Shown here: positions 437 to 62,736 of the stretch, piece by piece
How positions within the stretch are numbered: position 1 is the first letter of the stretch
Layout: every line of letters starts with the position of its first letter
NCBI GenBank assembly: GCA_030390025.1
Contig: CM059432.1
Span: 32,242,001-32,306,000, forward strand
DNA from: Squalus acanthias
Taxonomy: Eukaryota
Reading direction: 5' to 3'
Length of the DNA stretch: 64,000 nucleotides
The notes under the pieces: generated by a model
Databases searched by the model: none
Told to the model about the DNA's origin: nothing
What the model saw: only the letters and a program-made list of their open reading frames with translations
Translations under genes and position numbers: made by a program

Positions 437-842
437 AGTGTCATAGCAAGTTACTGGATTAGCAATCTAGTAGGCCTTGACTAGTAATCCAGGTAATGTG
501 AGTTCAAATCCCACCATAGCAATTGAGAACTTGAATTTGTTTATAAAAAAATCAGGAAATAAAAATCTGGTATCAATAAATGTGACCATTAAGCTGTTGG
601 ATTGTCGTAAAAGTCCAACTGGTTCACTAATGTCCTTTAAGGAAGGAAACCTGCCTTGCTTATTCAGTCTGACCTATATGTGATTCCAGTCTCACACAAA
701 TGTGATTGACTCTTAACTGTCCTCTGCAGTGGCCTAACAAGCCACTCAGCTGTATCAAACTGCTACAATCAGGGCAACTAGGGATGGGCAATAAATGTCG
801 GCCTTGCCAGCTCATGCCCACATCATGAGAATTTATAAAGAA
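437..842 (+). mobile_element. Bipartite tRNA-headed SINE (5' head plus 3' tail of the Zenon-like LINE)
   Basis: B-box-like GAGTTCAAATCCC near 500. The body matches the 5' region of the LINE at 36110-37590, and the 3' end GGGCAACTAGGGATGGGCAATAAATG...GCCCACATC matches that LINE's tail. Confidence 0.8.
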
Positions 843-1141
843 AAAGTCCCTGTTTGGGAAAAATTTAGCAAACATCATCGGTGCAAAGGCTACCTGTTTC
901 CATAATCTTCCATGTGCATTTCCAGGCACAGACAGGAAACGTAGAGGGAATGGGGTCAAGGAGTCACAGTGACAATAGAAGGGAAATGTTTGAGTTGGTA
1001 GAGAACATCTGATTATAATCTAACTCCACAGCAAGGGAGGGCAAGTCTACGGATGCTCATTTTTGAGTGTTGTTTTTCACTGAGGTAATTCAGACAGCTG
1101 AATGGGGAACCTTGAGTAAAAAAATGATACCTGATATGGCG

Positions 1142-2290: not shown

Positions 2291-2751
2291 CCTGACAGGG
2301 GTCCGGCTACTATTTGCTTTATGACGGTGCCTGCTGGAAAGTGTACATTTGCCGGGTAAGGGCAGGACCGGGCATGGCTGCAATACCCCCCAATTGATTA
2401 TAGTATTTACGACTGTGCAACAATGCCCCATAATGAATCAGTGGTTTCAGCACATGAGGACAGCAAATTAGAGGGGAGCAAGAAAAATGTCAAAAGGATT
2501 CATTGTTTTAAAAGGTAAATATGTTGTATTAACAGGGTCAAGGTGTAGCAGCAAGGATGATGGGTTATGAAGAGGGAATTACAGAGCTGGTCTTAATTTC
2601 ACTGGTGAAAAGAAGGTTGAGGGGACAATATCCAGGTTCCTCTGGAGATAAGTCCCTCCAATTTTTTGATGGATGATGGAATTAATTTCATTTATGTAGC
2701 ACCTTTCACATCCTTGAAACTTCTCAAAGCACTTTACAACCAGGGATTTTT

Positions 2752-4570
2752 TTTATAATTCATTCTTGGGATGTGGATGTTGCTAGCAAGGCTGACATTC
2801 ATTGCCCATTCCTAGTTTCCCTTGAGAGAATGGTGGTGGGCCGCCTTCTTTAACTGCTGCAGTCCATGTGGTGAAGGTGCTCCCACAATTCTGCTAGGTA
2901 GGGAGTTAGTTCCAGGATTTTGACCCAGTGACAATGAAGGAACAGCGATATATGTCCAAGTCAGATTGATATGTGACTATGTGGGGAACTTGGAGGTGAT
3001 GGTGTTCCCATGCACCTGGTGCTCTTGTCCTTCTAGGTGGTGGAGGTTACAGGTTTGGGAAGAAGCCTTGGTGATTTGCTGCAGTGCATCCTGTGGATAG
3101 TACACACTGTAGCCATAGTGCGCTAGTGGTGAAGGGGGTGGATGTTTTTAGGAAGTGATGAAGCAGATTGCTTTGTCTTGAATGGTGTTGAGCTTCTTCA
3201 GTGTTGTTGCAGCTACACCCATCCAGGCAAGTGGAGCGTATTCCACCACAATCCTGACTTTCGCCTCATAGGTGGTGGAGAGGCTTTGGGGAGTCAGGAG
3301 GTGAGCCACTTGCCACAGAATACCCAGGCTGGCCTCTGACCTGCTCTAGTAGCCTTAGCATTTATGTGGCTGATCCAGTTGAGTTTCTGGTCAATGGCGA
3401 CCCCCAGGATGTTGATGGTGGGAGATTTGGCAATGGTAATGCCATTAAATGCCATGGGGAAATGGTTATGCTCTCTTTTGTTGGAGATAGTCCTTGCCTG
3501 GCACTTGTGTGGCACAAATGGTACTAGCCTATCAGCCCACCTGCATGTTGTCCAGATGGACTGCTTAATTATCTGAGGAATTGTGAATAGAACAGACAAT
3601 CATAAGCAAACAACCCCATTTCTGACCTTATGATGGAGCGAAGGTCATTGATGAAGCAGCTGAAGATAGTTGGGCCCAGGATGCTGCCTTGAGGAACTCC
3701 TGCAGCGATCTCTTGGGGCTGAGATGATTGGTCTCCAATGACCACAACCATCTTCCTTTGTGCCAGGTATGACTCCAGCCACTGGAGAGTTGTCTCCCTG
3801 ATCCTCAATGACTTCAGTTTTACTAGGGCTTCCTGGTGTCACACTCGGTCGAATGCTGCCTTGATGTCAAGGGCAGCCCCTTTCATTTCACCTCTGGAAT
3901 TCAGGTCTTGTGTCCATGTTTGGACCAAGGCTGCAATGAGGACTAGAGCCCAGTGGTCCTGGTGGAACGCAAACTGAGCATCGGTGAGCAGGTTATTAGT
4001 GAGTAAGTATCGCTTAATAGTACTGTTGACGATTCCTTCTATCACTTTGCTGATGATTGGGAGTAGGCTAATGAGGTGGTAATTTGCAGGATTGGGTTTG
4101 TCCAGCTTTTTGCAGACAGGACATACCTGAGCAATTTTCCACATTGTTGGATAGATGCCACTGTTGTAGCTGTACTGGAATAGTTCAGCTAAAGGTGCAG
4201 CTAGTTCTGGAGCACAGGTCTTCAGGATTACAGCCAGGATGTTGTTTGGGCCTGTAGCCCTTGCTGTGTCCAGGTCACTCAGCCACTCAGCAAGGCCAGC
4301 AATAAATGCTGGCCTTGCCAGCAATGCCCACATCCCAGGAACGAATAATTAAAAAACAATTCTTGATGTCATGAGGAGTGAGTTGAATTGGCTGAAGACT
4401 GGCATCTATGATGGTGGGGACCTTAGGAAGAGGCTAAGAAGGATCATCCACTCGGACTTCTGGTTGAAGATGGTTGCAAATGCTTCACCCTTTAATTTAA
4501 CTCTTGTGCTGGACTTTGCCATCATTGAGGATGGGAATGTTTGTGGAACCCCCTCCTCTAATTAGTTACT
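2752..4570 (-). mobile_element. Degraded, 5'-truncated CR1/Zenon-like LINE
   Basis: RT fragments (GVPQGSILGPTIFSCFINDL, ALDIKAAFDRV, PELAAPLAELF) are colinear with the element at 33135-36000, with the same 3' tail. Confidence 0.9.
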
Positions 4571-4627
4571 TAATTGCACTGTTCAGGACTGGATGTGGCA
4601 GTTTCTGGAGTCACTGTTGAAGACTCC

Positions 4628-4942
4628 CAGGACCACTACTTTTGAAGTGGAGTAACTAATATTTTGTAGAACATGCAGTGGCCAATTTCTCCACAGCAAT
4701 GGGATAAGTGACCAGTTGGTTGAGGGACAAATGTTGGCCAGGACATCAGGAGAGCTCCCCGCTCTTCTTTGAATAGTAGCATGAGATTTTTTTAACAACC
4801 TATCCGAAAGGAAGCACCTCAAGCAACACAGTACTCCCTCATATTCTACTGAAGCGTCAGGATAGATTACATGGAGTGGGGCTTGAACCTTTGACCTTCT
4901 GACTCAGAGACAAGAGAACTACCACTAAGCCAAGCTGACACG
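4628..4942 (-). mobile_element. Deu-domain SINE (SacSINE1-like), degraded
   Basis: Similar to the intact copies at 23722 and 40838. Confidence 0.7.
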
Positions 4943-16745: not shown

Positions 16746-17154
16746 TTTAGCAAAAGAAACAGTCAAACTGACATTCAGACTGCCTCATTAGATAAGAATC
16801 GGTGCTTTGCATGTCCACATAGCAGGCTGTGTGCTGCTCGAATGGGAGACTTTCTGTGGCTGAATGTTTTGTACTGCAGGTGTTCCGTTACAAGAGTTCC
16901 ACACACAGCAGGTCTGAGAACTTTGTGGTCTTATTTTTTTTAGAAAGTAAAACACGCTCACACTGCCAAACATTTCAATTGTTGTTTCATTCCTATAGAG
17001 TTTAAAGGGGAAGGAAAATCTTGAGAGGGGGTATTTTTTGTTCAAAGTACTCCTCCAACAACTATAGACGGAGATATATTGCACACCATGTACTTTAGAG
17101 CCAGTGTTGTACTGGTCTGCATACATTGATAGCCCCTGAGAAGGTAGTGTGGCC

Positions 17155-17475
17155 ACCTCTGAGGGCGTTAAGACTCAACCACATAGCGGGGTGAATTTCC
17201 AAAGGGGATCTCCTACTCTACTGCCAAAGTTACTGTGGACAATCGAGAGATCCTGCAGCAATTCACCCCCATAGTGTGGGGCCAGATTCACATGTAGGCC
17301 AAACCAGGTAGAAGCAGCTGGTTGCCTTCCCTATAGGGCATCACTGAAGTAGTTGTTATTTTTACAACAATCTAGCAGTTTTCCTGGTTCTAGGTTACCA
17401 GATTACTAAATTCAGTTTCACAACTTGCCACGGTGAACTCATAATACATAATAGCCCTGTACTATAACCACTAGG
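17155..17475 (-). mobile_element. Degraded tRNA-headed (Zenon-type) SINE head containing a small GGGGTGAATT/AATTCACCCCC MITE (~17186-17270)
   Basis: Similarity to 36120-36270 and 37430-37590. Short inverted termini inside. Confidence 0.55.
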
Positions 17476-17929
17476 CTCTTTATGTATACATGGCACCTGT
17501 ATGTTGCCACTTTGCTTATGCTATGTACTCAGAATGGGAAAAAGCCATTGGGCCCACATGTCCACTTCTCAGTGGACTGTCTCGTGTCTGCACCCTTCCT
17601 TCCCCCTTTGCCCACACATCCTGGGAGAGCTTAAAAAAAAATTCAGGAAACTTCTGTCACACATTGAACTCCTTAAAGGCAATCGGGACATCCTGAGGTG
17701 GTCGCAAGCTATTGATATCTCATCAGAGGGAATCCTGCATGGTTCCTTTCTATTGATTCTCTCAGATATGCAAGTTTTTATTGTTTTATTTGACTAATTT
17801 AAACTTGTCAAGAATGAAGATAACAAAACTGTAAATCATTTTCTCTAATTATTTTCACACTAACTAGTTTATTGTAATGGGATCCTGATCAGGAGGTGTT
17901 AAGCACAACTGCACCTGGACCAGCTCATT

Positions 17930-21944: not shown

Positions 21945-22309
21945 TACAGCAGATCAGTCAGCATCTGAAAAGCTTGTTTCTCTCTCACTTTACTGCTTAT
22001 TTCTCTTTTGTCCTACATGGACCTCTCCTGTGTCTCTTCACCCACCCGCCCACTATTTGCACTTTCTTTTTTCCTTTCTATTTGTCTGTATTATCTCACT
22101 AACACCAAACTGTTTTCTATTTATCAGTTTGCAGGTCATTTAAGCACATTAGGTCCTATTCTGTGATCAGTGTACCTGTTGGCTCTCTCCCACTTTATTT
22201 TCCCAACCTTAATCATGTAGCCAGAAGATGAAAGGTACAACATGTGAAACCTTTTTTTTTGTTGCCCATCAGTGGTGGGTTGCCTTCTTGCACTTTCTAG
22301 GTCACAGGC

Positions 22310-22590
22310 CATTTCTGACAGCAGTCAACCTTAATGGCCTAGGATTGGATTCACATATAGGCCAGACCAAGCAGGTTTCTTTCCCGAAAGGACATGAGTG
22401 AACCAGTTGGGTTTTTACAACAATTCAACAGCTTCATAGCCACTTTTACTGATACCAGCTTTTTTTTTAAGTGAATTCAATTCCTCAATTTGCCATGGGG
22501 GGATTTGAACTCATATCTTTAACTGTATTATTAGTCTAGGCCTACTGGATTACTAGCCCAGTAACATAGCCACTACACTACTGCACCCTT
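22310..22590 (-). mobile_element. tRNA-headed (Zenon-type) SINE head
   Basis: Minus strand starts GGGTGCAGTAGTGTAGTGG (A box) and has GAGTTCAAATCC (B box). Matches 37430-37590. Confidence 0.75.
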
Positions 22591-29285: not shown

Positions 29286-32225
29286 TCATGTCCAATTTCC
29301 AGCCCGCTCCCCGTAACCCCTAATTCCCTTTACTTCTAGGAAACGGTCTATTTCTGTTTTAAATTTATTTAATGAAGTAGCTTCCACAGCTTCCTGCGGT
29401 AGCAAATTCCACAGACCCACTACCCTCTGAGTGAAAAAGCTTCTCCTCATCTCAGTTTTGAAAGAGCAGCCCCTTATTCTAAGATTATGTCCCCTAGTTC
29501 TAGTTTCACCCATCATTGGGAACATCCTCACCGTGTCCACCCGATCAAGCCCCTTCACAATCTTATATGTTTCAATAAGATCGCCTCTCATTCTTCTGAA
29601 CTCCAATGAGTAGAGTCCCAATCTACTCAACCTCTCCTCGTATGTCCACCCCCTCATCCCCAGAATTAACCGAGTGAACCTTCTTTGTACTGCCTCGAGA
29701 GCAAGTATGTCTTTTCTTAAGTATGGACACCAAAACTGTATGCAGTACTCCAGGTGCGGTCTCACCAATACCCTATACAACTGCAGCAATACCTCCCTGT
29801 TTTTATATTCTATCCCCCTAGCAATAAAAGCCAACATTCCATTAGCTTTCTTGATCACCTGCTGCACCTGCATACTAACTTTTTGATTTTCTTGCACCAA
29901 GACCCCCAGATCCCTTTTTACTGCAGTACTTTCCAGTTTCTCGCCATTAAGATAATAACTTGCTCTCTGATTTTTCCTGCCAAAGTGCATAACCTCACAT
30001 TTTCCAATATTGTATTGCATCTGCCAAATCTCTGCCCACTCACCCAGCCTGTCTATATCCCCTTGTAGGTTTTTTATGTCCTCCTCACTCTCTACTTTCC
30101 CTCCCATCTTTGTATCATCTGCAAACTTTGATATGTTACACTCGGTCCCCTCCTCCAAATCGTTAATATAGATTGTAAAGAGTTGGGGACCCAGCACCGA
30201 CCCCTGCGGAACACCACTGGCTACTGGTTGCCAGTCCGAGAATGAACCATTTATCCCAACTCTCTGCTTCCTGTTAGATAACCAATCCTCCACCCATGCC
30301 AGAATATTACCCCCAATCCAGTGATTTTTTATCTTGAGTAATAATCTTTTATGTGGCACCTTGTCGAATGCCTTCTGGAAGTCTAAATACACTACATCCA
30401 CTGGTTCCCCTTTATCCACCCTGTACGTTATGTCCTCAAAGAACTCGAGCAAATTTGTCAGACATGACTTCCCCTTCATAAAGCCATGCTGACTTTGTCC
30501 TATTAAATTATGTTTATCTAAATGTTCCGTTACTGTCTCCTTAATAATAGACTCCAAAATTTTACCCACCACCGATGTTAGGCTAACTGGTCTATAATTT
30601 CCAGCCTTCTGCCTACAACCCTTTTTAAATAAGGGTGTTACATTAGCAGTTTTCCAATCTGCCGGGACCTTTGCTGAGTTCAGGGAGTTTTGGAAAATTA
30701 TTACCAAAGCATCCATAATTCCTACTGCCACTTCCCTCAAGACCCTAGGATGTAAGCCATCAGGTCCAGGGGATTTATCCGCCTTGAGTCCCATTATTTT
30801 ACTGAGTACCAATTCCTTAGTGATTTTAATCGTATTTAGCTCCTCCCCCACTAGAGCCCCCTGTTTGTCCAGTGTTGGGATATTCTTAGTGTCCTCTACC
30901 GTAAAGACTGAAACAAAATATTTGTTCAGCATTTTTGCCATCTCCATGTTTCCCACCATTAATTTCCCGGTCTCATCCTCTAAGGGACCTACGTTTGCCT
31001 TAACCACCCTTTTTCTTTTTATATAACTATAGAAACTCTTGCTATCTGTTTTTATATTTTTTGCTAATTTATTTTCATAGTCTATTTTCCCTTTCTTAAT
31101 CAATCCTTTAGTTACTTTTTGTTGTCTTTTGAAGACTTCCCAATCTTCTATCCTCCCACTAACTTTGGCTACCTTATATGTCCTTGTTTTTAGTTGGATA
31201 CTTTCTTTAATTTCTTTACTTAGCCATGGATGGCTGTCATTTCTTTTACACCCTTTTTTCCTCAGTGGAATATATTTATTTTGAAAGTTGTAAAATAACT
31301 CCTTGAATGAACACCACTGCTCATGTACAGTCTTACCCTTTAATCTATTTTCCCAGTCCACTTTAATCAATTCTGCTCTCATACCATCATAGTCTCCTTT
31401 ATTCAAGCTCAGTATGCTTGTTTGAGAACCAACCTTCTCACCTTCTAATTGGATATGGAATTCAACCATGTTATGGTCACTCATTCCAAGGGGATCCTTA
31501 ACTAGGACATTATTAATTAATCCTGACTCATTACACAGGACCAGGTCCAAGGTTGCTTGCCCCCTTGTAGGATCAGTTACATACTGCTCAAGAAATCCAT
31601 CCCTAAGACACTCAATAAACTTTTCCTCAAGGCGGCCCTGCCCAATTTGATTTGTCCAGTTAATATGATAGTTAAAATCCCCCATAATTATAGCTGTTCC
31701 CTTATTACATGCCCCAACTATTTCCTGATTAATACTTCTTCCAACAGAGTTGCAACTATTAGGAGGCCTATATATTACGCCCACCAGTGTTTTTTTCTCC
31801 TTATTATTCCTTATCTCTACCCAAACTGTTTCATTATCCTGATCTTTTGACTCCATATCATTTCTCTGTATTACAGTGATTCCTTCCTTTATTAACATAG
31901 CCACCCCCCCTCCCCTTCCTTCCTGCCTGTCCTTCCTGATTGTTAAATACCCTGGCATATTTAATTCCCAGACGTTGTCACCCTGCAGCCATGTTTCTGT
32001 AATGGCCACAAGATCATACCCATACATAGTTATTTGTGCCGTTAACTCGTCCATTTTGTTACGAATGCTACGTGCATTCAGATAAAGAACTTTCAAATGT
32101 GTTTTGTGACACTTACATCCTGCTTTTTCCTTATTTAACACTTTACCTTTTACTCCATACCTTCTGTCCCTTCCTGACATGCTTTCCTCTGTCTCCCTGC
32201 TCAGGTTCCCAATCCCCTGCCACAT
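29286..32225 (-). CDS. CR1 ORF2 protein: APE endonuclease plus reverse transcriptase, 979 aa, uninterrupted
   Basis: APE motifs YLNARS, ITETWL, GGGVA, YRPP, MGDFN, SDH. RT motifs [29 protein letters not shown]. Confidence 0.95.
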   Translation of the reverse strand: MWQGIGNLSRETEESMSGRDRRYGVKGKVLNKEKAGCKCHKTHLKVLYLNARSIRNKMDELTAQITMYGYDLVAITETWLQGDNVWELNMPGYLTIRKDRQEGRGGGVAMLIKEGITVIQRNDMESKDQDNETVWVEIRNNKEKKTLVGVIYRPPNSCNSVGRSINQEIVGACNKGTAIIMGDFNYHINWTNQIGQGRLEEKFIECLRDGFLEQYVTDPTRGQATLDLVLCNESGLINNVLVKDPLGMSDHNMVEFHIQLEGEKVGSQTSILSLNKGDYDGMRAELIKVDWENRLKGKTVHEQWCSFKELFYNFQNKYIPLRKKGCKRNDSHPWLSKEIKESIQLKTRTYKVAKVSGRIEDWEVFKRQQKVTKGLIKKGKIDYENKLAKNIKTDSKSFYSYIKRKRVVKANVGPLEDETGKLMVGNMEMAKMLNKYFVSVFTVEDTKNIPTLDKQGALVGEELNTIKITKELVLSKIMGLKADKSPGPDGLHPRVLREVAVGIMDALVIIFQNSLNSAKVPADWKTANVTPLFKKGCRQKAGNYRPVSLTSVVGKILESIIKETVTEHLDKHNLIGQSQHGFMKGKSCLTNLLEFFEDITYRVDKGEPVDVVYLDFQKAFDKVPHKRLLLKIKNHWIGGNILAWVEDWLSNRKQRVGINGSFSDWQPVASGVPQGSVLGPQLFTIYINDLEEGTECNISKFADDTKMGGKVESEEDIKNLQGDIDRLGEWAEIWQMQYNIGKCEVMHFGRKNQRASYYLNGEKLESTAVKRDLGVLVQENQKVSMQVQQVIKKANGMLAFIARGIEYKNREVLLQLYRVLVRPHLEYCIQFWCPYLRKDILALEAVQRRFTRLILGMRGWTYEERLSRLGLYSLEFRRMRGDLIETYKIVKGLDRVDTVRMFPMMGETRTRGHNLRIRGCSFKTEMRRSFFTQRVVGLWNLLPQEAVEATSLNKFKTEIDRFLEVKGIRGYGERAGNWT

Positions 32226-32413
32226 TAGTTTAAATCCTCCCCAACAGCACTAGCAAACACTCCCCCTAGGACAGCGGTCCCTGGCCCTGCCCAGGTGCAG
32301 ACCGTCCGGTTTGTACTGGTCCCACCTCCCCGAGAACCGGTTCCAATGTCCCAGGAATTTGAATCCCTCTCCCTTGCACCATTCCTCTAGCCACGTATTC
32401 ATTTGAAATATCC
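32225..32413 (-). pseudogene. CR1 ORF1 C-terminal fragment (SGNH/esterase-like)
   Basis: Encodes RIFQMNTWLEEWCKGEGFKFLGHWNRF...YKPDGLHL, with the DGLH motif typical of CR1 ORF1 esterase. One apparent 1-bp insertion. Confidence 0.8.
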
Positions 32414-33198
32414 TCGTGCGCTCCTTCCGCTGTTTGTGCTTGGCTTCCACTTGCTCCCGGCGAAGAGACTCAAGGTTTCGGCGCCTTCCCGGATGCTTCT
32501 CCTCCACTTTGTGCGGTCTTGGGCCAGGGATTACCAGGTGTCCGTGGGGATGTTACACTTTTTCAAGGAGGCTTTGAGGGTGTCCTTGAAGCATTTCCTC
32601 TGCCCACCTGGGGCTCTCTTGCCGTGTCAGAGCTCCAAGTAGAACGCTTGTTTTGGGGGTCTCGTATCGGGCATGCGGACGATGTGGTCCATCCATCGGA
32701 GCTGATCGAGCGTGGTCAAGTCTTCGATGCTGGGGATGTTGGCCTGACAGAGAACACTGACGTTGGTGCGCCTATCCTGCCAATGGATTTGCAGAATCTT
32801 GCAGAGGCAGCGTTGGTGGCACCTCTCCAGTGCTTTGAGGTGCCTGCTGTACATGGTCCATGTCTCTGAAGCATACAGGAGGGCGGGTATCACTACTGCT
32901 CTGTAGACCATGAGCTTGGTGCTGGATTTGAGGTCCTGGTCTTCAAACACTCTCTGCCAATCCATTCTCATACTCTCTTTGCCCCTCTTATTTCTTTTTT
33001 CACTTCCCCTCAGAACTTTCTATATTCAGCCTGGTTCTCACTTGTATTCTTAACCTGACATCTGTCATACGCCCTCTTTTTCAGTTTCGTCTTACTCTCC
33101 ATTTCTTTCGTCATCCAGGGAGCTCTGGCTTTGGTTTTGTTTTTATTCATTTATGGGATGTGGGCGTCGCTGGCAAGGCCAGCATTTATTGCCCATCC

Positions 33199-36002
33199 CT
33201 AATTGCCCTTGAGAAGGTGGTGGTGAGCCGCCTTCTTGAACCACTGCAGTCCGTGTGGTGAAGGTACTCCCACAGTCCGGTTAGGTAGGGAGTTCCAGGA
33301 TTTTGACCCAGTGACGATGAAGGATCGGCGATATACTTCTAAGTCAGGATGGTGTGTGACTTGGAGGGTAACTTGGAGGTGGTGGTGTTCCCATGCGCCT
33401 GCTGCCCTTGATCTTCTAGGTGGAAGAGGTCGCGGGTTTGGTAGGTGCTGCCGAAGAAGCCTTGGTGAGTTGCTGCAGTGCATCTTGTAGATGGTACACA
33501 CTGCAGCCACGGTACGCCGGTAGTGGAGGGAGTGAATGTTTAAGGTGGTAGATGGGGTGCCAATCAAGCGGGCTGCTTTGTCCTGGATGGTGTTGAGCTT
33601 CTTGAGTGTTGTTGGAGCTGCACTCATCCAGGCAAGTGGAGAGTATTCCATCACACTCCTTACTTGTGCCTTGTAGATGATAGAAAGGCTTTGGGGAGTC
33701 AGGAGGTGAGACACTCGCTGCAGAATACCTAGCCTCTGACCTGCTCTTGTCGCCACAGTATTTATGTGGCTGGTCCAGTTAAGTTTCTGGTCAATGGTGA
33801 CCCCCAGGATGTTGATGGTGGGGGATTCGGCGATGGTAATGCCATTGAATGTCAAGGGGCGGTGGTTAGACTCTCGCTTGTTGGAGATAGTCATTGCCTG
33901 GCACTTCTGTGGTGCGAATGTTACCTGCCACTTATCGGCCCAAGCCTGAACGTCGTCCAGGTCTTGTTGCATGTGGGCATGGACTGCTTCATTATCTGAG
34001 GAGTTGTGAATGGCACTGAACACTGTGCAGCCATCAGCGAACATCCCCATTTCTGACCTTATGTTGGAGGGAAGGTCATTGATGAAGCAGCTGAAGATGG
34101 TTGGGCCTAGGACACTGTCCTGAGGAACTCCTGCAGCGATGTCCTGGGGCTGTGATGATTGACCTTCAATCACCACAACCATCTTCCTTTGTGCTAGGTA
34201 TGACTCCAAACAGTGGAGAATTTTCCCCCCGATTCCCATCGACTTCAGTTTTACTAGGGCTCCTTCATGCCACATTCGGTCAAATGCTGCGTTGATGTTA
34301 AGGGCAGTCACTCTTACCTCATCTCTGGAATTCAGCTCTTTTGTCCATGTTTGGACCAAGGCTGTAATGAGGTCGGGAGCCGAGTGGTCTTGGCGGAACC
34401 CAAACTGGGCATCAGTGAGTAGGTTATTGGTGAGTAAGTGTTGCTTGATAGCACTGTCAATGACACCTTCCATCACTTTGCTGATGATTGAGAGTAGACT
34501 GATGGGGCGGTAATTGGCCGGATTGGATTTGTCCTGCTTTTTGTGGACAGGACATACCTGGGCAGTTTTCCACATTGTCGGATAGATGCCAGTGTTGTAG
34601 CTGTACTGGAACAGCTTGGCTAGAGGCGCGGCTAGTTCTGGAGCACAAGTCTTCATCACGATAGCTGGGATGTTGTCAGGGCCCATAGCCTTTGCTGTAT
34701 TCAGTGCGCTGAGCCGTTTCTTGATATCACATGGAGTGAATCGATTTGGCTGAAGACTGGTTTCTGTGATGGTGGGGACATCAGGAGGAGGCCGATATGG
34801 ATCATCCACTCCGCACTTCTGGCTGAAGATGGTTGCAAACACTTCAGCCTTGTCTTTTGCACTCACGTGCTGGGCTCTGCCATCATTGAGGATGGGGATA
34901 TTCATGGAACCTGCTCCTCCCGTTAGTTGTTTAATGCTCCACTACCATTCACGACTGGATGTGGCAGGACTGCAGAGCTTTGATCTGATCCGTTGATTGT
35001 GGGATCGCTTAGCCCTGTCTATAGCATGCTGCTTCTGCTTTTTAGCATGCATGTAGTCCTGTGTTGCAGTTTCCCCAGGTTGGCATCTCATTTTTAGGTA
35101 CATCTGGTGCTGCTCCTGGCATGCTCTTCTACTCTCCTCATTGAACCAGGGTTGGTCCCCTGGCTTGATGGTAATGGTAGAGTGAGGGATATGCTGGGCC
35201 ATGAGGTTACAGATTGTGCTGGAATACAATTCTGCTGCTGCTGATGGCCCACAGCGCCTCATGGATGCCCAGTTTTGACCTGCTAGATCTGTTCTGAATC
35301 TATCCCATTAAGCACGGTGGTAGTGCCACACAACACGATGGAGGGTGTCCTCAGTGTGAAGACGGGACTTCGTCTCCACAATGACTTTGCGGTGGTCACT
35401 GCTACCAATACTGTCATGGACAGATGCATTTGCAACAGGTAGATTGGTGAGGACGAGGTCAAGTAGGTTTTTCCCTCATGTTGGTTCTCTCACCACCTGT
35501 CTCAGGCCCAGACTGACACCTATGACCTTCAGGACTCGGCCAGCTTGGTCAGTAGTGGTGCTATCGTGCCACTCTTGATGATGGACATTAAAGTCCCCCA
35601 CCCAGAGGACATTCTGTGCCCTTGCTACTCTCAGTGCTTCTTCCAAGTGGTGTTCAACATGGCGGAGTACTGATTCATCAGCTGAGGGAGGGCGGTAGGT
35701 GGTAATCAGCTGGAGGTTTCCTTGCCCATGCTTGACCTGAAGCCATGAGACTTCATGGGGTCCGGAGTCAATGTTGAGAAATCCCAGGGCCACTCCTTCC
35801 CGACTGTATACCACTGTGCCGCCACCCCTGGTGGGTCTGTCCTGACGGTGGGACAGGACATACCCAGGGGTGGTGATGGAGGAGTTTTGGACATTGGCTG
35901 AAAGGTATGATTCTGTGAGTATGACTATGTCAGGCTGTTGCTTGACTCGTCTGTGGGACAGCTCTCCCAATTTTGGCACAAGCCCCCAGATGTTGGTGAG
36001 GA
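33199..36002 (-). pseudogene. APE-RT ORF of the tRNA-headed LINE, one frame with three nonsense codons
   Basis: ORFs 35476-35979, 34942-35262 and 33199-34905 share one frame. Motifs TNIWGL, ILTESYL, RGGGT, YRPP, VGDFN, YRPISLL, GVPQDSVLGP, FADG. Confidence 0.9.
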
Positions 36003-36269
36003 GGGCTTTGCAGGGTCGACTGGGTTAGGTGTGCCGTTGCCGTGTCCATAACTAGTGCTAAGGTTGATGCTGGGTGGTCCATCCGGTTTCATTTTTATTA
36101 TTTTGTTTTGTAGCGGTTTGTTACAACTGAGTGGCTTGCTTAGCCATTTCAGGGGGCAGTTAAGAGTCAAGAGTCACATATAGGCCAGACCAGGTAAGGA
36201 CAGCAGATTTCCTTCCCTAAAGGACATTAGTGAACCAGATGGGTTTTTACGACAATCTGATAGTTTCAT

Positions 36270-37430
36270 AAGAACATAACATAAGAAATAGGAGCAGGAG
36301 TAGGCCATTCGGCCCTTCGAGCCTGCTCCACCATTTAATGATATCATGGCTGATCTTCTGCCTCAATTCCATTCACCGGCCTTATCGCCATATCCCTTAC
36401 TAGTCGGAAATCTATCGACTTCTTTTTGAATATACCCAATGACTGAGCCTCCACAGCCCTCTGGGGTAGAGAATTCTGAAGATTCACCACCATCTGTGTG
36501 AAGAAATTTCTTCTCATCTCAGTCCTGAATGGCCTACCCTTTATCCTGAGGCTGTGGCCCCTGGTTCTAGACTCCCCAGCCAAGGGAAACATTCTCCCAG
36601 CATCCACCCTATCAAGCCCTGTAATAATTTTGTATGCTTCAATGAGATCCCCTCTCATTCTTCTGAATTCAAGAGAATACAGGCCTAGTTTATTCAATCT
36701 CTTCTCATACGACAGTCCCGCCATCCCAGGAATCAATCTCGTGAACCTTCGTTGCACTCCCTCTATGGCAAGTATATCCTTCCTTAGGTAAGGAGACCAA
36801 AATTGTACACAGTACTCCAGGTGTGGTCTCACCAAGGCCCTATATAATTGGAGTAAGACTTCTTTACTCCTCTTGTAATGAAGGCTGGCATACCATTTGC
36901 CTCCCTAATGGCTTGCTGCACTTGCACATTCACTTTCAGTGACTCATGTACAAGGACACCCAGGTCCCTTTGAGCATCTGCATTCCCCAATCTTTCACCA
37001 TTTAGGAAATACTCTGCCTTTCTGTTTTTTCTACCAAAGTGGATAACTTCACATTTATCCACATTATAATCCATCTGCCATGTTCTCGCCCACTCACTGA
37101 GCCTGTCGAGATCCCTTTGAAGCCTCTTCACAACTGACACTGACACCTAGCTTTGTGTCATCAGCAAATTTGGAAATGTTACATTTAGTCCCCTCATCCA
37201 AATCATTGATATAGATTGTGAATAGCTGGGACCCAAGCACCGATCCTTGCGGTACCCCACTAGTCACAGCCTGCCATCCTGAAAAAGACCCGTTTATCCC
37301 TACTCTCTGTTTTCTGTCTGTTAACCAATTCTCAATCCATGCTAGTAGATTATCCCCAATTCCACGTGCTCTAATTTTGTTCACCAACCTCTTGTGTGGG
37401 ACCTTATCGAAGGCCTTCTGAAAATCCATG
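36270..37430 (-). mobile_element. 5'-truncated CR1 inserted in the LINE head
   Basis: Encodes DFQKAFD...FADD...RRMRGDLIEAYK. TSD GTTTCAT at 36263-36269 and 37431-37437. Confidence 0.92.
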
Positions 37431-37692
37431 GTTTCATGGTTACCATTACTGATACTAGCTTTTTATTCCAGATTTATTTAATTAACTGAATTTAAATTCC
37501 CCAGCTGCCATGGTGGAATTTGAACTCACATCTCTGGATCATTAGTCCAGGCTTCTGGATTACTAGCCCAGTGACATTACCACTACACTAAACCTTATGA
37601 TACTGTGATCACTGTTCCCTAAATGTTTTCCTACTGACACTTGCTCCACCTGACCCACCTCATTCCCCAGAATCAGATCCAGCAATGCCTCA

Positions 37693-37970
37693 TTTATATA
37701 AAGCACTTTTCACATTCTCAGCATGTCTCAAAGCAATTCACAGCCAATGAATTAATTTTGAAATGTAGTCACTGTTGTTATGTAGGCAAACACAGCAACC
37801 AATTTGTATATAACAAATCCCATGGAGAGCAAATGAGATAAATTACCAGACAATGTATTTTTATTACTGTTGGTTGAGGATAAATGTTGTCCAAGACGTC
37901 CACCGATGAGGGAAGATCGGGCCTCGGTTTAATATCTCATCCAAAAGATATCTCTGACCTCTGACAGTAC
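37693..37970 (-). mobile_element. Deu-domain SINE fragment
   Basis: Reverse tail and core. Confidence 0.7.
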
Positions 37971-44065: not shown

Positions 44066-44885
44066 CTCTAAACCTCTCCGCCTCTCCGCCTCTCTAAACC
44101 TCTCCACCTCTCTACCTCTCTAAACCTCTCCGCCTCTCCACCTCTCTAAATCTCTCCGCCTCTCCGCCTCTCTAAACCTCTCCGCCTCTCTACCTCTCTA
44201 AACCTCTCCGCCTCTCCACCTCTCTAAATCTCTCCGCCTCTCCGCCTCTCTAAACCTCTCCGCCTCTCTACCTCTCTAAACCTCTCCGCCTCTCTAAACC
44301 TCTCCGCCTCTCTAAACCTCTCCGCCTCTCTACCTCTCTAAACCTCTCCGCCTCTCTACACCTCTCCGCCTCTCTAAACCTCTCCGCCTCTCTAAACCTC
44401 TCCGCCTCTCTACCTCTCTAAACCTCTCCGCCTCTCTACACCTCTCCGCCTCTCTAAACCTCTCCGCCTCTCTACACCTCTCCACCTCTCTAAACCTCTC
44501 CGCCTCTCTAAACCTCTCCACCTCTCTAAACCTCTCCGCCTCTCTAAACGTTTCCGCCTCTCTACACCTCTCTGCCTCTCTAAACCTCTCCTCCTCTCCA
44601 CCTCTCTAAACCTCTCTGCCTCTCTAAACCTCTCCGCCTCTCTACACCTCTCCGCCTCTCTAAACCTCTCCGCCTCTCTACACCTCTCCGCCTCCCTAAA
44701 CCTCTCCGCCTCTCTAAACCTCTCCGCCTCTCTACACCTCTCCGCCTCTCTAAACGTTTCCGCCTCTCTAAACCTCTCCACCTCTATAAACCTCTCCGCC
44801 TCTCTCTACCTCACCGCCTCTCTACCTCTCCGCCTCTCTCTACCTCTCCGCCTCTCTACACCTCTCCACCTCTCTACCTCTCTTT
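44066..44885. repeat. ~18-bp pyrimidine-rich minisatellite (TAAACCTCTCCGCCTCTC)n
   Basis: Direct tandem array that continues into an L2 3' end. Confidence 0.95.
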
Positions 44886-45719: not shown

Positions 45720-46075
45720 CAGTGTGTACCATCTACAAGATGCACTGCAGCAACTCACCAAGGCTTCTTCGGCAGCACCTCCCAAACCCACGACCTCTTC
45801 CACCTAGAAGGACAAGGGCAGCAGGCGCATGGGAACACCACCACCTCCAAGTTCCCCTCCAAGTCACACACCATCTTGACTTAGAAATATATCGCCGTTC
45901 CTTCAGCATCGCTGGGTCAAAATCCTGGAACTCCCTCCCTAACAGCACTGTGGGAGTACCCTCACCACACGGACTGCAGCGGTTCAAGAAGGCGGCTCAC
46001 CACCACCTTCTCAAGGGCAACTAGGGAGGGGCAATAAATGCTGGCCTTGCCATCGACGCCCAGATCCCATAATCG
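45720..46075 (+). mobile_element. Zenon-like LINE 3' fragment
   Basis: Encodes CTIYKMHCSNSPRLLRQHLP...AAHHHLLKGN*, with the shared tail. Confidence 0.9.
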
Positions 46076-46084
46076 AATTTTAAA

Positions 46085-46700
46085 AAAAGAGGGCTGGAAT
46101 ACAATGGGGAGCAAGTTATGCTTCAGTTGTATAGCGCCTTGGTCAGGCCCTACCTGGAGTACTGCGTTCAGTTCTGGGCACCGCATCTCAAGAAGGATAT
46201 ATTGGCCTTGGAAGGGGGTGCAGCGCAGATTCACCAGAATGATACCAGGCCTAAAAAGGTTAAATTATGATGAAAGGTTGCATAAACTTGACTTCCTTTC
46301 CCTTGAGCTTAGAAGATTGAGGGGTGATCTGATCAAAGTGTTTCAAATGGTAAAAGAATTCGAATAGAGTAGATATGGGGAAGTTATTTCCTTTGGTGGG
46401 GGAATCCAGAACAAAGTGGCATAATCTTAAAATTAGAGCCAAGCAATTCAGGAGTGAAATTGGGAAGCACTTTTTCACGCAAAGGCTGGTGGAAATCTGG
46501 AATTCTCTCTCCCAAAAGGCTGTGGATGCTGGGTCAATTGAAATGTTCAAGACTGACATCAATTGATTTTTGTTGGGTCAGGGCATCAAGGGATATGGAT
46601 CAAAGGTGGGTAAATAGAGTTGAAGAACAGATCAGCCATGATCCAATTGAATGGTGGAACAGGCTCGAGGGGCTGAATGATCTACTCCTGTTCCTATGGT
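46085..46700 (+). mobile_element. CR1 3' fragment
   Basis: Encodes [28 protein letters not shown]1 3' hairpin present. Confidence 0.9.
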
Positions 46701-51164: not shown

Positions 51165-51350
51165 GCAGCGGTTGACTCCTAACTCCCCTCTGAAGTGGTC
51201 TAGCAAACATTTCAGTTCTATCGAACCACCACAAAGAATTGCAGTGGTTCCAGGAGAAAGCCCAACATCACTTGCTTAAGGGCAACTCGGGATGGGCAAT
51301 AAATGCCGTCCTCGCCAGCGACGTCACATCCCAAGAATGAATAATAAAAA
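51165..51350 (+). mobile_element. Bipartite Zenon-derived SINE, 3' part
   Basis: The end of the head region is fused to the last codons and tail of the LINE. Confidence 0.7.
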
Positions 51351-51409
51351 ACAAACAAACAGATGAAGTGATCTTTTATTTCATTGTTTGTTTGTGGGGA
51401 TTTATGGTA

Positions 51410-52130
51410 TGGGTACAGTAGCATTGTGGTTATTTTCCTGGACTAATAATTCAACGAATGTGAATTCAAATCCCACCATGGCAGTTTGAGAATTTGAATT
51501 TAGCTTTTTTAAAAGCTGGCATCAGCTGGTTTCATACATGCATTTAAGGAGAAGTTAGATAAGTACATGAGGGAGAAAGGAATAGAGGATATGCTGATAT
51601 GGGTGAGATGAAGTAAATAGTGGGAGATGGCTCGTGTGGAGCATAAACACCAGTATAGACCAGTTGGGCTGAATAGCCTGTTTCTGTGCTGTATATTCTA
51701 CGTAATTCTATGTGAAAGTGACCATGAAGCTGTTGCATTGTCGTAAAATCCAACTAATCTCCTTTAGGGAAGGAAACCTGCCGTCCTTGCCGGTCTGCCC
51801 TATATGTTTCCCACAGTCCAAAGATGTGCGGGTTAGGTTGATTTGGCTATAATAAATTGACCCTTAGTGTTAGGGGGATTAAATACGTGGGGTTACGGGG
51901 ATAGGGTGGGATATGTGTCGGTGCAGGCTCGATGGGCCGAAATGGCCTCTATCTGCACTGTGGGGATTCTGTGATTCTGTGATTCTGTGATGTGACTCCA
52001 GTCCCGAAGCATTGTGGTTGACTCTTAACTGCCCTCTGAAGGGACCAAGCAAGCCACTTAATTGTACAAGGGCAATTGGGGATGGCAATAATTGCCAGCC
52101 TTGTCAGCAATGCCCACATCCTGAATACAA
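51410..52130 (+). mobile_element. Bipartite Zenon-derived SINE with nested CR1 tail (~51540-51712) and HE1-like SINE
   Basis: GGGTACAGTAGCATTGTGG head. The body resumes after each insertion. LINE-type tail. Confidence 0.75.
51808..51990 (+). mobile_element. HE1-like V-SINE, 5'-truncated
   Basis: CCCACAGTCCAAAGATGTGCGGGTTAGGTTGAT...TAAATTG (V-domain) plus a CR1-type GGGCCGAAATGGCC hairpin and (GATTCTGT)n tail. Confidence 0.75.
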
Positions 52131-56450: not shown

Positions 56451-56871
56451 ATTAACATATCAAAATATTGGACAGGTAAAGACCGGCTGGTCCATCGAGC
56501 ATGTCCCAAACAGTCATGATACACCAAAGCATCGTGACTCCCATGGTTCCCTCCCACTGGTCGTCATGTAATTTCTGGGGAGAGGCAAAAAAAAAAATTT
56601 AAAAACACCATTGGCCAATTCAGGGGGAAAATTCTGGGGGATTCCTCTCTAAGACGATCAAGAACCAGTTCCTGGAGATCACAGTGACTATGATCTATAA
56701 ACCAAGTCCCACCTACCTTCTGTGCATAATAATATTATCCTGTTGCGCCATGGGGGGTAAAACTCCCTTCGCTGAGAGTGTACAGAGTTTCCTCTTATTG
56801 AACTGCTCGTTACAAATAACCTCATTTCACTGTTAAAAAAAATACAAATTCATATCTGAAGATACTGCCAA

Positions 56872-57886
56872 TTATCACAGCCCCAGGATATCGCTGCAGG
56901 AGTTCCTCAGGGCAGTGTCCTAGGCCCAACCATCTTCAGCTGCTTCATCAATGACTTTCCCTAAGGTCAGAAATGGGGATGTTCGCTGATGACTGCACAG
57001 TGTTCAGTGCCATTCACAACTCCTCAGATAATGAAACAGTCCATACCCGCATGCAACAAGACCTGGACGACATTCAGGCTTGGGCTGATAAGTGGCAGGT
57101 ACATTCACACCACACAAGTGCCAGGCAATGACTATCTCCAACAAGCGAGAGTCTAAGCATCGCCTCTTGACATTCAACGGCATTACCATCGCCGAATCCC
57201 CCACCAACAACATCTTGGGGGATACCATTGACCAGAAACTTAACTGGACTAGCCACATAAATACTGTGGCAACAAGAGCAGGTCAGAGGCTAGGTATTCT
57301 GCGGCGAGTGTCTCACCTCCTGACTCCCCAAAGCCTTTCCACTATCTACAAGGCACAAGTCAGGAGTGTGATGGAATACTCTCCACTTGCCTGGATGAGT
57401 GCAGCTCCAACAACACTCAAGAAGCTCAACACCATCCAGGACAAAGCAACCCGCTTGATTGGCATCCCATCCACCACCTTAAACATTCACTCCCTCCACC
57501 ACCGGTGTACTGTGGCTGCAGTGTGTACCATCTACAAGATGCACTGCAGCAACTCGCCAAGACTTCTTCGGCAGCACCTCCCAAACCCGCGACCTCTTCC
57601 ACCTAGAATGACAAGGGCAGCAGGCGCATGGGAACACCAGCAGCTCCAAGTTCCCCTCCAAGTCACACACCATCCTGACTTAGAAGTATATCGCCAGTCC
57701 TTCATCGTCGCTGGGTCAAAATCCTGGAACTCCCTCCCTAATAGCACTGTGGGAGTACCATCACCACACAGACTGCAGCGGTTCAAGGCAGCAGCTCACC
57801 ACCACCTTCTCAAGGACAATTAGGGATGGGTAATAAATGCTGGCCTTGCCAGCGACGCCCACATCCCATAAACAAATTAAAAAAAA
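56872..57886 (+). mobile_element. Zenon-like LINE, 5'-truncated
   Basis: [10 protein letters not shown] and FADD. ORF 57092-57823 is highly similar to the C-terminal part of 33199-34905. A-rich tail. Confidence 0.95.
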
Positions 57887-59195: not shown

Positions 59196-61074
59196 CTATC
59201 TTTTGGCTATTCGACCACTGGAAGTATCACAGCCAATCCTGTACTCACCCTACATACTTATATGCATGCATGCACATACGTGCACGCACACACACTTTTC
59301 ATCATGGGATACTGGATAGAGATTGGTAAAGGTGATACGGGTTATTTTACCTTCCCCCAGCAAAAGGACTCTGAGGCCAATTGTAGTGTTGCTAGCGCTG
59401 CCTCATCTGAGATCTTCTATCTTTAACACTCCAGAGCATAAACCTCTGGACATTCCCGGTCTGTATGGCTCAATGCTGATAAATATGGTGCGTGCATATT
59501 GTTAACTGAACACTAGATGACCCCCCCCCCCCGCCCCGCCCCCCCCCCCCCCCCCCCGATGGGAGTAACCACATTGAAGCAATTACACTGCAAGGTCTCT
59601 CTTGTATTGCTTTGTTATTCTTTGGCGAAATGTTCCAGAGGGTCTGGAAATAAAAGCAGCCAGTCATTACCACACCAATTTGAGTGTTTATTCAGACATA
59701 ACAAGTGCCACATTGGGCAGTGCATGAACCAACCAAGGCACCAAGAGAGCGCCACTCACATCACTTATTTGGGATTTTATTGTTCTCTTTCTATGCCTTT
59801 TTGTGTGGCTGCTGGTGGGTTTTTTGAGGTTACACAGCTCTCAGTTAAGCCAAGCAAGCTTTTTTTCTGCGTTTTTATCTCCATCTGAGACATCTAAGAT
59901 GTAAATCAGGTGGCCAGGCATGTTGTGACCTAATCACTACACTGGGATGTTCCCAACACCCACCTCACCCCATGAATTTTCTAGCTCTAGGTCTATATTA
60001 TACGGGGGATCTGCTGCCCATTATTTCTCCCTGTTCGTTGACAATGTAAGCAGGTCCTGTTGTTCCCTTCAGGGCCTCTCCTTCACTATTATTTCCCCCA
60101 GATTTCCTTTCCTCCCGAGGCATCGACTCATGTTCGGGTTAGGGTTAGGTTAGGGCATTCAGTTATTCATCATGTGTAAGGTCTGACCATGAGTGTTGAA
60201 AGGCTGTTCGACCATGAGGTGGTGCATTACAGCCGGGTCTGATCCTACCCTTAAGCAACGCCCATTCAGGTACATGCCCCAGCAACGGTCACTGAATAGC
60301 AAATAGGAGCTGGACCCCTGACTCATTTTCCCTTCCCTACTTCAGGGGTGTTGAGCACTACTTAGTGCCTACTGAAATCAGCTAACTCAGCATGAACCCT
60401 GGATTGAGCCTGAGGCCTTCCTTGTCCATTACTGTTTTTATACTGGTGCTTGGATTCAATGACAGCACATCAAAGAACTGCCTCCCAGCGTTTACACCAC
60501 TAAATTCAGCTCTCTAATCCCTTTGGCATAATCCTAGAACTAGTTTTTCATAAATCTGCCGTTCTGTTGTCAGGATAGGGTCGGGTTGCACGGTAAATGC
60601 CAAAAGCCAGCTCATGGATGCCAGTCTCCACAAATACCAGCTAAACGAGCGCCAGTTTAAGAGCAGCTTATACCGTTCACTGCCACATTGGGCATCAGGG
60701 AGAGTGTGTCATGTATTTGTAAATAGACAGTGCTTTTTCATTAGCTTGACAAGAGCACAACAACACGCCTTAAATAACATTTTCTAATAAAGGCCGAACG
60801 TAGAGGGTGAGTGGCCTAAGAAACCCCTTGCTCCTCCGCATTTACTTTCACATCACACCAGTAGGCTCCTTGTGAATGGAAGTCAGAGGGGAAGCGTGAA
60901 TGATCGCAGCAGATACCCACCGGCATCAAGCAGTGGCGTCATGACACACAACACCTAAGTGTAACTGGGGTATATATGTGACACTGATGTCAAGAAAGGA
61001 ACATGCCCAGATCACATTACTATTGGTGCAGTGCTTTTGCAAGGTGCAGTTAGAGCAAAGACAGGATTCATTCA

Positions 61075-61585
61075 TGAATTCCTCAGGATTTGGGCATCAT
61101 TGGCAAGGCTGCATTTATTACCCATCCCTAGTTGCCCAAATTTGATACAACTGGGTGGCTTGCTAGGCCACTTCAGAGGGCAGTTAAAAAGAAAGACTTG
61201 CATTTATATATAGCGCCTTTCATGACCACTGGATGTCTCAAAGCGCTTTACAGCCAATTAAGTACTTTTGAAGTGGAGTCACTGTTGTAATGTGGGAAAT
61301 GCGGCAGCCAATTTGCACACAACAAGGTCCCACAAACAGCAATGTGATAATGACCAGATAATCTGTTTTTGTTATGTTGGTTGAGGGATAAATATTGACC
61401 AGGACACCGAGGATAACTCCCCTGCTCTTCTTCGAAATAGTGCCATGGGATTTTTTACGTCCACCTGAGAGAGCAGACGGGGCCTCGGTTTAACGTCTCA
61501 TCCGAAAACGGCACCTCCGACAGTGCAGCAGTTAAGAGTCAACCACATTGGTGTCAGACTGAAGCCAGACCGGGTAAGGACGGGA
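61075..61585 (-). mobile_element. Bipartite Zenon-derived SINE interrupted by a Deu-SINE (61188-61527, -)
   Basis: 8-bp TSD GCAGTTAA at 61180-61187 and 61528-61535. Confidence 0.85.
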
Positions 61586-62736
61586 GGTAGGGTACTGAGT
61601 CCCAGGGATAATTGGATCCTTTGGGTTGCCAAAATCTGACAGTTTTAGCCTCATCTGGCTGCTGGCTGCAGGATGCCTGTTATACAGAAACTGGTGGTCA
61701 AAGAACCATATAAAAGTGACTAATGTCCAACTGAGTGGGCGGAGGAGCTGTCAGTCAAACAGTTGTAGCATCTGTCTCCCTAAAGTGTTTCTCGTCTGGT
61801 ACCGTTTAAGATTTTATCTGACCTATTTTTTCTCTTTCTCGTGGTACTATCCCTCCTTCACGTCTCCCCCACTCATCACCTTTTATCTTTCAAAGAGTTG
61901 CCTTTGCCCTAGGCTGTCAGGAGAATCTCACCATTGCAAAAAGCAAGCTTTAACTTGATCGCAATGTAAATAAGTCCTATTATGTAAGGGGATTTTTGTA
62001 TTTGCAGTCTTCCATTCCACACACACACACACACCCTCCCCCTCCCCAACTCTCCAGATACAAAAGTTTCCCAGAATATGTGGGGGAAACTCTCAGCAGA
62101 CTGGCTGCCGGCCGGGTGTGGTTTGGTACTTTCTGTAGACCTGTGTGGTTTTTTTTTGTCTGACTTGTTCTGCTTTCGGTTGGGGGAGGGTAGTTCATAT
62201 GTAGGTGGAGGTTTCAGTAAAGTACAAAATTGGCCCAAGTGTCAGTAAGGAGTTATGCCTTTTATTTTAACTTTAGATTTAGCTGTAAAATGATTGCTTC
62301 TTCTATACATACCAGTCTCCACGTGAGTTTACAGAAAATCTGGTGCTTTTTTTGCACGGCGAGTCCCTTTACTTTCTCTTTCTTTGCCGGTCATCCTGGT
62401 TTGGGTTTAATCTCACTTTACAGCAAGGTGGGATTTGCTGGACTCAGTTCACATTTTGCAATCAACTTGAGCAAATGTTTAATAAGTCAGTAGTGCAGCT
62501 AAAGGGTACTGTCGTCCTGCTGGGGTGCCTTTTAAGTCATCTATCAGGTGAGATTGAGCAGGCTGTGGGCTCTTTTCTCTGAAAAAGAGACTAAGAGGAG
62601 AGCTGAGAGGGGTCTTTAAAAGTATGAAGAGGGTTCGATAGGGTGGATGTGCAGAAACTGTTTCCACGTGGGTGAGAACAAAGGGGTATAAATATAAGCT
62701 AGCCACTTAAAGATCAAAGAAACTATTTAGGAAAAT

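Follow-up and report, generated by a model that had tools for sequence, protein, structure and literature searches.

A tRNA-like head on elasmobranch Zenon retrotransposons and its probable passage into short elements by internal deletion in Squalus acanthias

Introduction

Short interspersed elements (SINEs) arise, in the standard account, by a fusion that joins the head of a small RNA with the tail of a long interspersed element (LINE) or with a deleted LINE, an event that is rare and is seen only afterwards. Here, we describe a LINE of the Zenon family that opens with a transfer RNA (tRNA)-like head, together with six short elements that join its leader to its 3′ end. They lie in a 64,000-nucleotide (nt) stretch of Squalus acanthias DNA (GenBank assembly GCA_030390025.1, contig CM059432.1, forward-strand positions 32,242,001 to 32,306,000), which we call the window and number from its first letter.

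The closest described system is Persaeus of Lepidoptera (Wang et al. 2019, PMC6740152; statements on this paper, on PMC13343379, and on PMC4824008 refer throughout to the accessible parts of these sources). Persaeus elements are 263 to 386 bp long and unite the 5′ and 3′ ends of lepidopteran Zenon, including the end of its open reading frame (ORF) and the poly-A. Their breakpoints vary, with AGGCC microhomology, their copy number is high, and they have at least four independent origins. They show no homology to tRNA, 5S, or 7SL RNA and no promoter for RNA polymerase III (Pol III), for which reason they are classed as short internally deleted elements (SIDEs) rather than SINEs. The short elements in the window appear to have been made in the same way, by an internal deletion of Zenon that joins its two ends, but differ from Persaeus in that four of the six have a head with box-like motifs. 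Furthermore, the independent origins of Persaeus rest on trees across genera, whereas the shark elements are six copies whose site patterns point both ways.

Bov-A/Bov-tA, the RTE- and Vingi-derived SINEs, RIME, and the R2 SIDEs likewise combine the 5′ and 3′ ends of a LINE and are mobilized through a shared tail (PMC5786205). In the bipartite model (Kojima 2018, PMC5786205), an RNA head is added by template switch after the deletion, whereas in the shark case the head would have been on the LINE beforehand. Shark SINEs with tRNA heads have been described, but SacSINE1 (Deu domain) and the CmiSINEs (CORE) differ in their bodies and carry an L2 tail in the source material accessible to us, and HE1, which has a tRNA-derived head, is a V-SINE (PMC4824008). 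No likeness was seen by eye between the window elements and the Meta domain, the 66 bp after the tRNA head of BivaMeta/BivaMD-SINE1 (Nishihara 2016, PMC4824008). Four of five window motifs were absent from the supplement of that paper and one was found once, and none of six matched a hagfish SINE in the material available, the single match lying in coding-like sequence.

The Zenon family and its repeated internal deletion are thus known from Lepidoptera (PMC6740152); what is new here is a LINE that already bears a Pol III-type head, so that one deletion gives a structural SINE. On balance, we lean toward the reading that the tRNA-headed Zenon yields SINE-like elements by internal deletion and has done so more than once. 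A tRNA-headed short element is not described in the accessible parts of PMC7245038, PMC10886601, PMC4494074, PMC6685494, PMC11481361, and PMC5499810, and no literature on tRNA-headed Zenon or its short forms was found in a search that reached neither Repbase, Dfam, or SINEBase nor the bulk of the subscription journals. A search of paper texts with window motifs returned only papers that, judged from the listing, were unrelated.

Results

The window consists of vertebrate DNA of the shark type, rich in repeats, and contains one full-length but decayed LINE (Table 1), which, judging from its sequence, is an elasmobranch Zenon. A 2026 survey of the CR1 group reported that sharks and rays have Zenon elements that lack ORF1 and are poly-A-tailed, and its Table S3 includes a few naturally intact Zenon ORFs (PMC13343379). 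The window LINE agrees with them in having a single ORF for an apurinic endonuclease (APE) and a reverse transcriptase (RT) without ORF1, by which Zenon is recognized within the CR1 group, as well as in its poly-A and its length. Stop codons split the ORF into pieces of 182, 121, and 580 amino acids (aa). Its best named protein match was from a crab (P0004, 40%), which is compatible with the crustacean neighbors given in PMC13343379.

We compared by eye the first 400 letters of the seven elasmobranch Zenon consensus sequences in the supplement of that survey (CarCar, HypSab, RhiTyp, and ScyCan_Zenon-1 and SquAca_Zenon-1, -2, and -3, from four sharks and one stingray; PMC13343379). All seven open with the head and leader seen in the window and continue from there into the LINE body. 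A 12-nt motif of the window leader occurs in six of the seven rows and nowhere else in the accessible supplement, and by eye the window LINE comes nearest to SquAca_Zenon-1 in head, leader, and the approach to the ORF. The published consensus sequences of SquAca_Zenon-2 and -3 are shorter than that of SquAca_Zenon-1. The head was absent from the first 400 letters of two hagfish and one coelacanth Zenon, which have unrelated starts (PMC13343379), and lepidopteran Zenon does not have it either (PMC6740152). Similarly, neither a head-plus-leader profile nor a tail profile matched any of 80 distant RT relatives (26 to 40% identity). An earlier note on this DNA had called the LINE tRNA-headed, and this holds for the family as a whole: the tRNA-like head is a trait of shark and ray Zenon, present in published sequences but apparently unremarked. 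The words "tRNA," "promoter," and "non-autonomous" do not occur in the main text of the survey as available, which accordingly discusses neither the head nor short derivatives (PMC13343379).

The leader of the window LINE is interrupted by a later CR1 copy, and between this insert and the endonuclease frame only ~240 nt of leader are left. Contigs from other organisms skip the insert (joints 36247/37431, 36228/37460, and 36194/37433), so head and leader are contiguous elsewhere. An 82-codon open frame (35928-36173, minus strand; ATG near 36092) also extends from the leader past the start of the endonuclease, in a different reading frame; used as a protein query, the leader translation found no convincing relative and one weak match at 25% identity. 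At the other end of the LINE, the tail stem-loop folds with a z of −2.49, and an equally good fold was found in 5 of 200 shuffles. The 3′ end is A-rich in all four aligned LINE tails and is of the poly-A rather than the microsatellite type. Over the last 360 nt, the older Zenon copy in the window is 81 to 84% identical to the rest, and the others are 92 to 94% identical to each other.

Table 1. Zenon LINE parts, short elements, and other Zenon copies in the window
Feature	Position	Strand	Details
Full-length LINE, decayed, ~3.3 kb	37590-33136	-	Head, leader, single ORF, tail
LINE head and first part of leader	37420..37590	-	A box 37590-37580, B box 37525-37517 (1 mismatch)
LINE head hairpin units	37571-37555 and 37550-37534	-	
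CR1 copy, 5′-truncated	36273..37419	-	Later insert in LINE leader, short target duplication
Remaining LINE leader	36025..36272	-	Portion common to short elements stops at 36141-36107
LINE ORF, single, decayed	33199..36024	-	APE endonuclease and RT, no ORF1; PF03372, PF14529, PF00078
Zenon 3′ tail	33136..33212	-	~75-nt stem-loop, then A-rich end; putative RT recognition site
437 element	437..845	+	Junction 36108/33212; leader to 768, Zenon tail 769-845, A-rich end
22588 element	22255..22588	-	Junction 36132/33241; A box 22580-22570, B box 22510-22502; last ORF codons retained
17480 element, old, diverged	~17130..17480	-	Junction 36141/33222; eroded head, ~100-nt leader insert, tail remnant; weakest call
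51235 element, 5′-truncated, headless	51168..51352	+	Junction 36107/33252; ~17 ORF codons, full tail, A-run
52065 element	51410..52125	+	Junction 36122/33211; head with one hairpin unit only, leader, tail
61140 element, 5′-truncated	61066..61648	-	Junction 36114-36117/33208-33214; leader, tail, no head detected
Tandem hairpin units	37571-37534 (-), 454-492, 22561-22523 (-)		Single unit at 51438-51454
Zenon, 5′-truncated, older subfamily	2748..4641	-	Broken by tail-only piece 4299-4355 (+)
Zenon, 5′-truncated, younger subfamily	45720..46088	+	
Zenon, 5′-truncated, younger subfamily	56869..57886	+	

General tRNA detection did not recognize the head. ARAGORN found no tRNA in the window, and its 185 calls under relaxed settings were pure noise. 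The Rfam tRNA model scored 15 bits on the LINE head (E 2.4), under its 29-bit cut-off, and did not match the 437 element, and no Rfam model reached its gathering score anywhere in the window. Patterns for the A and B boxes each matched the LINE head and three of the four headed short copies, with two mismatches allowed for the A box and one for the B box. The boxes are separated by two 17-nt hairpin units in tandem, reminiscent of a duplicated anticodon arm. The loop of the first unit reads AGT (which would be Thr) and that of the second AAT. In the published consensus sequences, as far as accessible, the boxes appear by eye cleaner than in the window copies, and the pairing of the second hairpin is kept via two-sided changes between SquAca and CarCar/ScyCan. 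This covariation of the second stem suggests selection on the RNA structure of the head. Folding of the decayed window heads themselves gave no signal (z −0.95 to 1.22).

The LINE is also poor in runs of four T. Its sense strand has one such run in 3305 nt versus 4.7 expected (p 0.05), and its ORF has none in 2649 nt versus 2.4 expected from codon shuffling (p 0.07). Its T content, 0.197, is lower than in any of the 37 distant relatives whose ORF is at least 2400 nt long; these range from 0.237 to 0.359 and have 4 to 54 runs each. The scarcity fits transcription by Pol III, which we infer, and is no proof of it.

Seven elements in the window bear the leader according to the head-plus-leader profile, namely the full-length LINE and six short elements. 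We placed the junctions of the latter by split alignment to the window's own LINE and give them as the last leader base/first 3′ base in LINE coordinates. The four junctions quoted in the earlier note, at ~768, 51235, 52065, and 61140 (minus strand), are all present in the sequence. The note had described the short elements as head and leader joined to tail; leader-tail joins were found in all of them, but two of the four quoted have no head, since the profile matched the 51235 element only at 51168-51230 and the 61140 element from profile position 152 onward. Head, leader, and tail are complete in four of the six. Without inserts, the short elements measure ~330 to 410 nt, and none contains an ORF of 120 aa or more.

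The 437 element retains both hairpin units (454-470 and 476-492) and a B box (502-510), its A box is decayed, and it is 78% identical to the LINE copy in the head and 82% in the leader. The 22588 element has a tail cut short before A9, and the 51235 element is the longest on either side of the junction. Tails are 71 to 86% identical to Zenon tails in the four full-tailed short copies, the other two having remnants only. Four later insertions sit within the ~250-nt leader of three elements: a ~340-nt SINE with a 7-8 nt target duplication in the 61140 element (61526-61189, minus strand), two inserts in the 52065 element (~51525-51711 and ~51808-51989, both plus strand), and the CR1 copy in the LINE (37419-36273, minus strand). 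These copies must predate their insertions. Two of the four insertions fall near the same leader position. We take the inserts to be SacSINE1-like, HE1-like, and CR1 tails; neither the head-plus-leader nor the tail profile matched those labeled SacSINE1-like and HE1-like.

All six junctions fall within 35 nt on the leader side and within 45 nt on the 3′ side, out of a span of ~2.9 kb. They nevertheless differ, as the earlier note had said: forcing one copy onto the junction of another costs 9 to 100 score points, and no single shared junction was seen. The cost is smallest, 9 to 15, when the 52065 element is paired with the 61140 element, and these two may form one junction class. The junctions of the 22588 and 17480 elements are less securely placed (scores 44 and 60), and neither of their tails was picked up by the tail profile. 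Microhomology was found at two junctions, TCAA in the 52065 element and GGCC in the 17480 element, and does not separate models of one birth from models of repeated birth.

For other organisms, we examined the 15 best-supported of 2912 joints in contigs from sequencing runs, plus one further leader-to-3′ joint. The 15 comprise four leader-to-3′ joints, three that skip the CR1 insert, seven within the ORF or its 3′ end, and one CR1 tail-ORF joint. The junction of the 52065 type recurs in another organism (33209/36122, run X17, three contigs, depth 463, shorter side 40 letters), with the break on the leader side at the identical base. Run X2 contains four more leader-to-3′ joints, 36110/33262, 36117/33275, 36147/33294, and 36213/33420, at depths of 261 to 1089 versus 20 to 39 for its eight listed long pieces. 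The seven deletions within the ORF or its 3′ end (LINE 33200-34813) remove 40 to 472 nt, some at high depth (X2 and X17), and the Zenon family may have other amplified deletion forms. No listed piece from the runs spans head to ORF; run X23 gave 284 reads and no joint, and no read of run X24 matched. DNA pattern scans for further copies found none in metagenome contigs and none in viral contigs, and a protein scan of genome contigs gave 16 pattern matches, none of them confirmed.

Discussion

Two or more births at the level of the LINE seem to us somewhat more probable than not, and repeated independent birth is plausible but unproven. The junctions of the 437 and 22588 elements do not nest in each other, nor do those of the 437 and 17480 elements, so neither member of these pairs derives from the other. 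Where the 437, 22588, and 52065 elements have different bases in common, the 61140 and 17480 elements are LINE-like, hinting at two sources of short elements. In addition, the X2 joints retain 10 to 170 nt more of the ORF, and one common ancestor would have had to possess ~285 nt of 3′ end. Lepidopteran Zenon, deleted independently at least four times, sets a precedent (PMC6740152).

A number of observations weigh against the reading that a tRNA-headed Zenon has repeatedly given rise to amplified short elements. The formal tRNA likeness of the head is weak and below thresholds. No convincing target-site duplication (TSD), which the earlier note had looked to, was found in the five short elements and the LINE tested, although decay may hide TSDs in copies that are ~20% diverged. 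The window offers no clear case of two copies with the same junction. With seven of the 15 best joints inside the ORF or 3′ end, the family evidently deletes elsewhere, too. Three of the four X2 leader-to-3′ joints are single contigs whose shorter side is 21 to 24 letters, X2 was counted in part, and contig depth is not copy number. The X2 head depth of 0.60 to 0.67 million is not above the depth of the 5′ part of the ORF, 0.49 to 0.99 million, and these depths reveal no marked surplus of short forms when 80% likeness to the LINE copy is applied. On the number of births, the five other window junctions could each be derived from a 51235-type master by one further deletion of 36 to 64 nt. The 437, 22588, and 52065 elements have common differences from the LINE copy at 5 of 76 sites in the leader and 7 of 122 in the head, with 2 to 4 (leader) and 5 to 19 (head) private changes per copy; by eye, about eight of the shared sites also differ from SquAca_Zenon-1 in the published material accessible. 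These three thus came from one source lineage, which would be a LINE subfamily of greater age or else a single SINE master. Finally, tail identities sort the short copies with neither LINE subfamily; a grouping of their tails with the older LINE (4641-2748) was considered and dropped, as it rested on one or two sites and overall identities gave no support. The several independent deletions proposed in the earlier note therefore stand as differing junctions, and their independence is left unproven by the nesting and the shared substitutions.

The nesting and the shared substitutions are what would be expected if a single LINE-to-SINE deletion in an old Zenon subfamily had produced a master of the 51235 type or longer, from which later masters were serially trimmed by 35 to 65 nt in the dispensable zone around the junction, becoming subfamilies within one SINE family. 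Besides the nesting of all window junctions in the 51235 type and the substitutions that three differently joined copies share and the LINE copy lacks, the starts of the tails in the 437, 52065, and 61140 elements lie only a few bases apart, and a TCAA repeat could convert the 437 form to that of the 52065 element. However, the X2 joints demand the ~285-nt ancestor just mentioned, a form not among the 15 joints examined, and the 61140 and 17480 elements do not have the three-copy substitutions. We consider serial trimming from one birth possible but on the unlikely side.

The direction was very probably from LINE to short element, as the earlier note had claimed. The LINE itself bears the head in sharks and in a ray. 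Judged by eye against the accessible consensus sequences, the short elements have their head variant in common with the window LINE and the SquAca consensus sequences and not with CarCar, ScyCan, RhiTyp, or HypSab, and so postdate the split of those LINE heads. Some of them extend right up to where the shared leader stops, and the length of ORF retained varies. It is very unlikely, in our view, that an ordinary SINE with a template-switched Zenon tail came first and donated its head to the LINE, with the short elements as its descendants. The head must indeed have an external origin, since it is missing from non-elasmobranch Zenon and all of the distant relatives searched; ordinary bivalve SINEs use Zenon tails in the literature accessible to us, and the leader has a motif like that of SINE bodies (see below). 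But such a SINE would not account for the lineage-specific head variant of the local LINE in the short elements, nor for copies that extend to the LINE-specific leader end and keep differing lengths of ORF. The leader end had looked by eye like the end of the ORF, as if it were a relic of an older tail, a candidate that was rejected: none of 20 comparisons was significant, the best shuffle p being 0.08. From its absence in other Zenon and in the distant relatives, the head was captured earlier than the short elements arose, probably once and early. The earlier note had held that no tRNA/LINE template switch is needed; this is true of the births, but the lineage still requires that a head from a tRNA or a SINE was captured once in the distant past, and the template switch is shifted back in time, not eliminated.

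As to the source of that head, a purine-rich leader motif at 630-655 and 17330-17312 (minus strand) resembles by eye the 5′ untranslated region (UTR) motif of RTE. This conserved RTE 5′-UTR motif occurs in the bodies of Ceph-SINEs and in two non-RTE LINEs (Kojima 2018, PMC5786205). The head donor could have been an RTE-type SINE, or the likeness could be a low-complexity chance match.

The short elements were likely amplified as SINE-like families. Of the copy-number expansion per junction class that the earlier note had looked for, one recurring junction and raised contig depths were found, and nothing further in the 15 of 2912 joints. That each short element is instead a one-off deleted LINE copy, made by template jump or genomic deletion and never multiplied, is less likely still than a SINE-first origin: five or six junctions in six copies, the many ORF-internal joints in the read data, and the missing TSDs would suit it, but one-off deletions should scatter over 2.9 kb and would not give six of six junctions in so narrow a zone, the short forms outnumber the full element six to one, and one junction recurs in another organism.

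Under the favored explanation of repeated internal deletion, an ORF1-less Zenon in the shark and ray ancestor would have acquired a head of tRNA origin together with the leader in a single capture, the donor probably being a SINE, and this head would have been the 5′ end of full-length Zenon from then on, which is how it appears in the published consensus sequences. Internal deletions would then arise, probably when the RT jumps between templates or when short microhomologies recombine, as proposed for Persaeus. A deletion sparing the head, the leader, and the last 75 to 120 nt would take out the ORF only, leaving a noncoding element of ~400 nt with a putative internal Pol III-type promoter and a tail presumably recognized by the Zenon RT, that is, a structural SINE with no further fusion. 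Minimal forms would be copied in trans by the Zenon protein, which may be why the junctions crowd into a narrow zone. Deletion at the LINE level would have occurred more than once, and short masters already present would to some extent have been trimmed afterward.

If the fusion is already on the autonomous parent, the birth of a SINE is reduced to one deletion, possibly with replicates within and between genomes. Assemblies of sharks and rays could then be used to test the minimum of leader and tail required for a SINE, as well as the origin of SINE bodies, and Persaeus provides a natural comparison, being of the same LINE clade and having the same deletion habit without a Pol III head. A bolder proposition, which we regard as doubtful, is that elasmobranch Zenon is an autonomous coding LINE transcribed by Pol III from its captured tRNA head and, by virtue of an internal promoter at its 5′ end, has been a permanent source of SINEs over the whole evolution of sharks and rays, with each host lineage and LINE subfamily giving rise, through one deletion, to SINE families of its own. 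If it is true that Pol III reads this LINE, a coding retrotransposon must be translated from uncapped RNA.

Other features of the window

The window contains many further repeat remnants, which we take to be CR1-, L2-, and RTE-like. CR1 ORF2 sequence adjoins the full-length LINE upstream (37590-37700; tblastn E 1e-7), and the downstream flank (33135-33040) is CR1 ORF2-like by eye, ~70 codons further on, although not found by tblastn. This suggests that the LINE was inserted into a CR1 with a target deletion in place of a TSD. Within the older Zenon copy (4641-2748), the tail-only Zenon fragment sits in the opposite orientation. A young CR1-type copy has an uninterrupted APE-RT frame of 987 aa (29286-32249, minus strand), and two tandem arrays of short units with repetitive open frames lie at 44396-44935 and 52590-52970.
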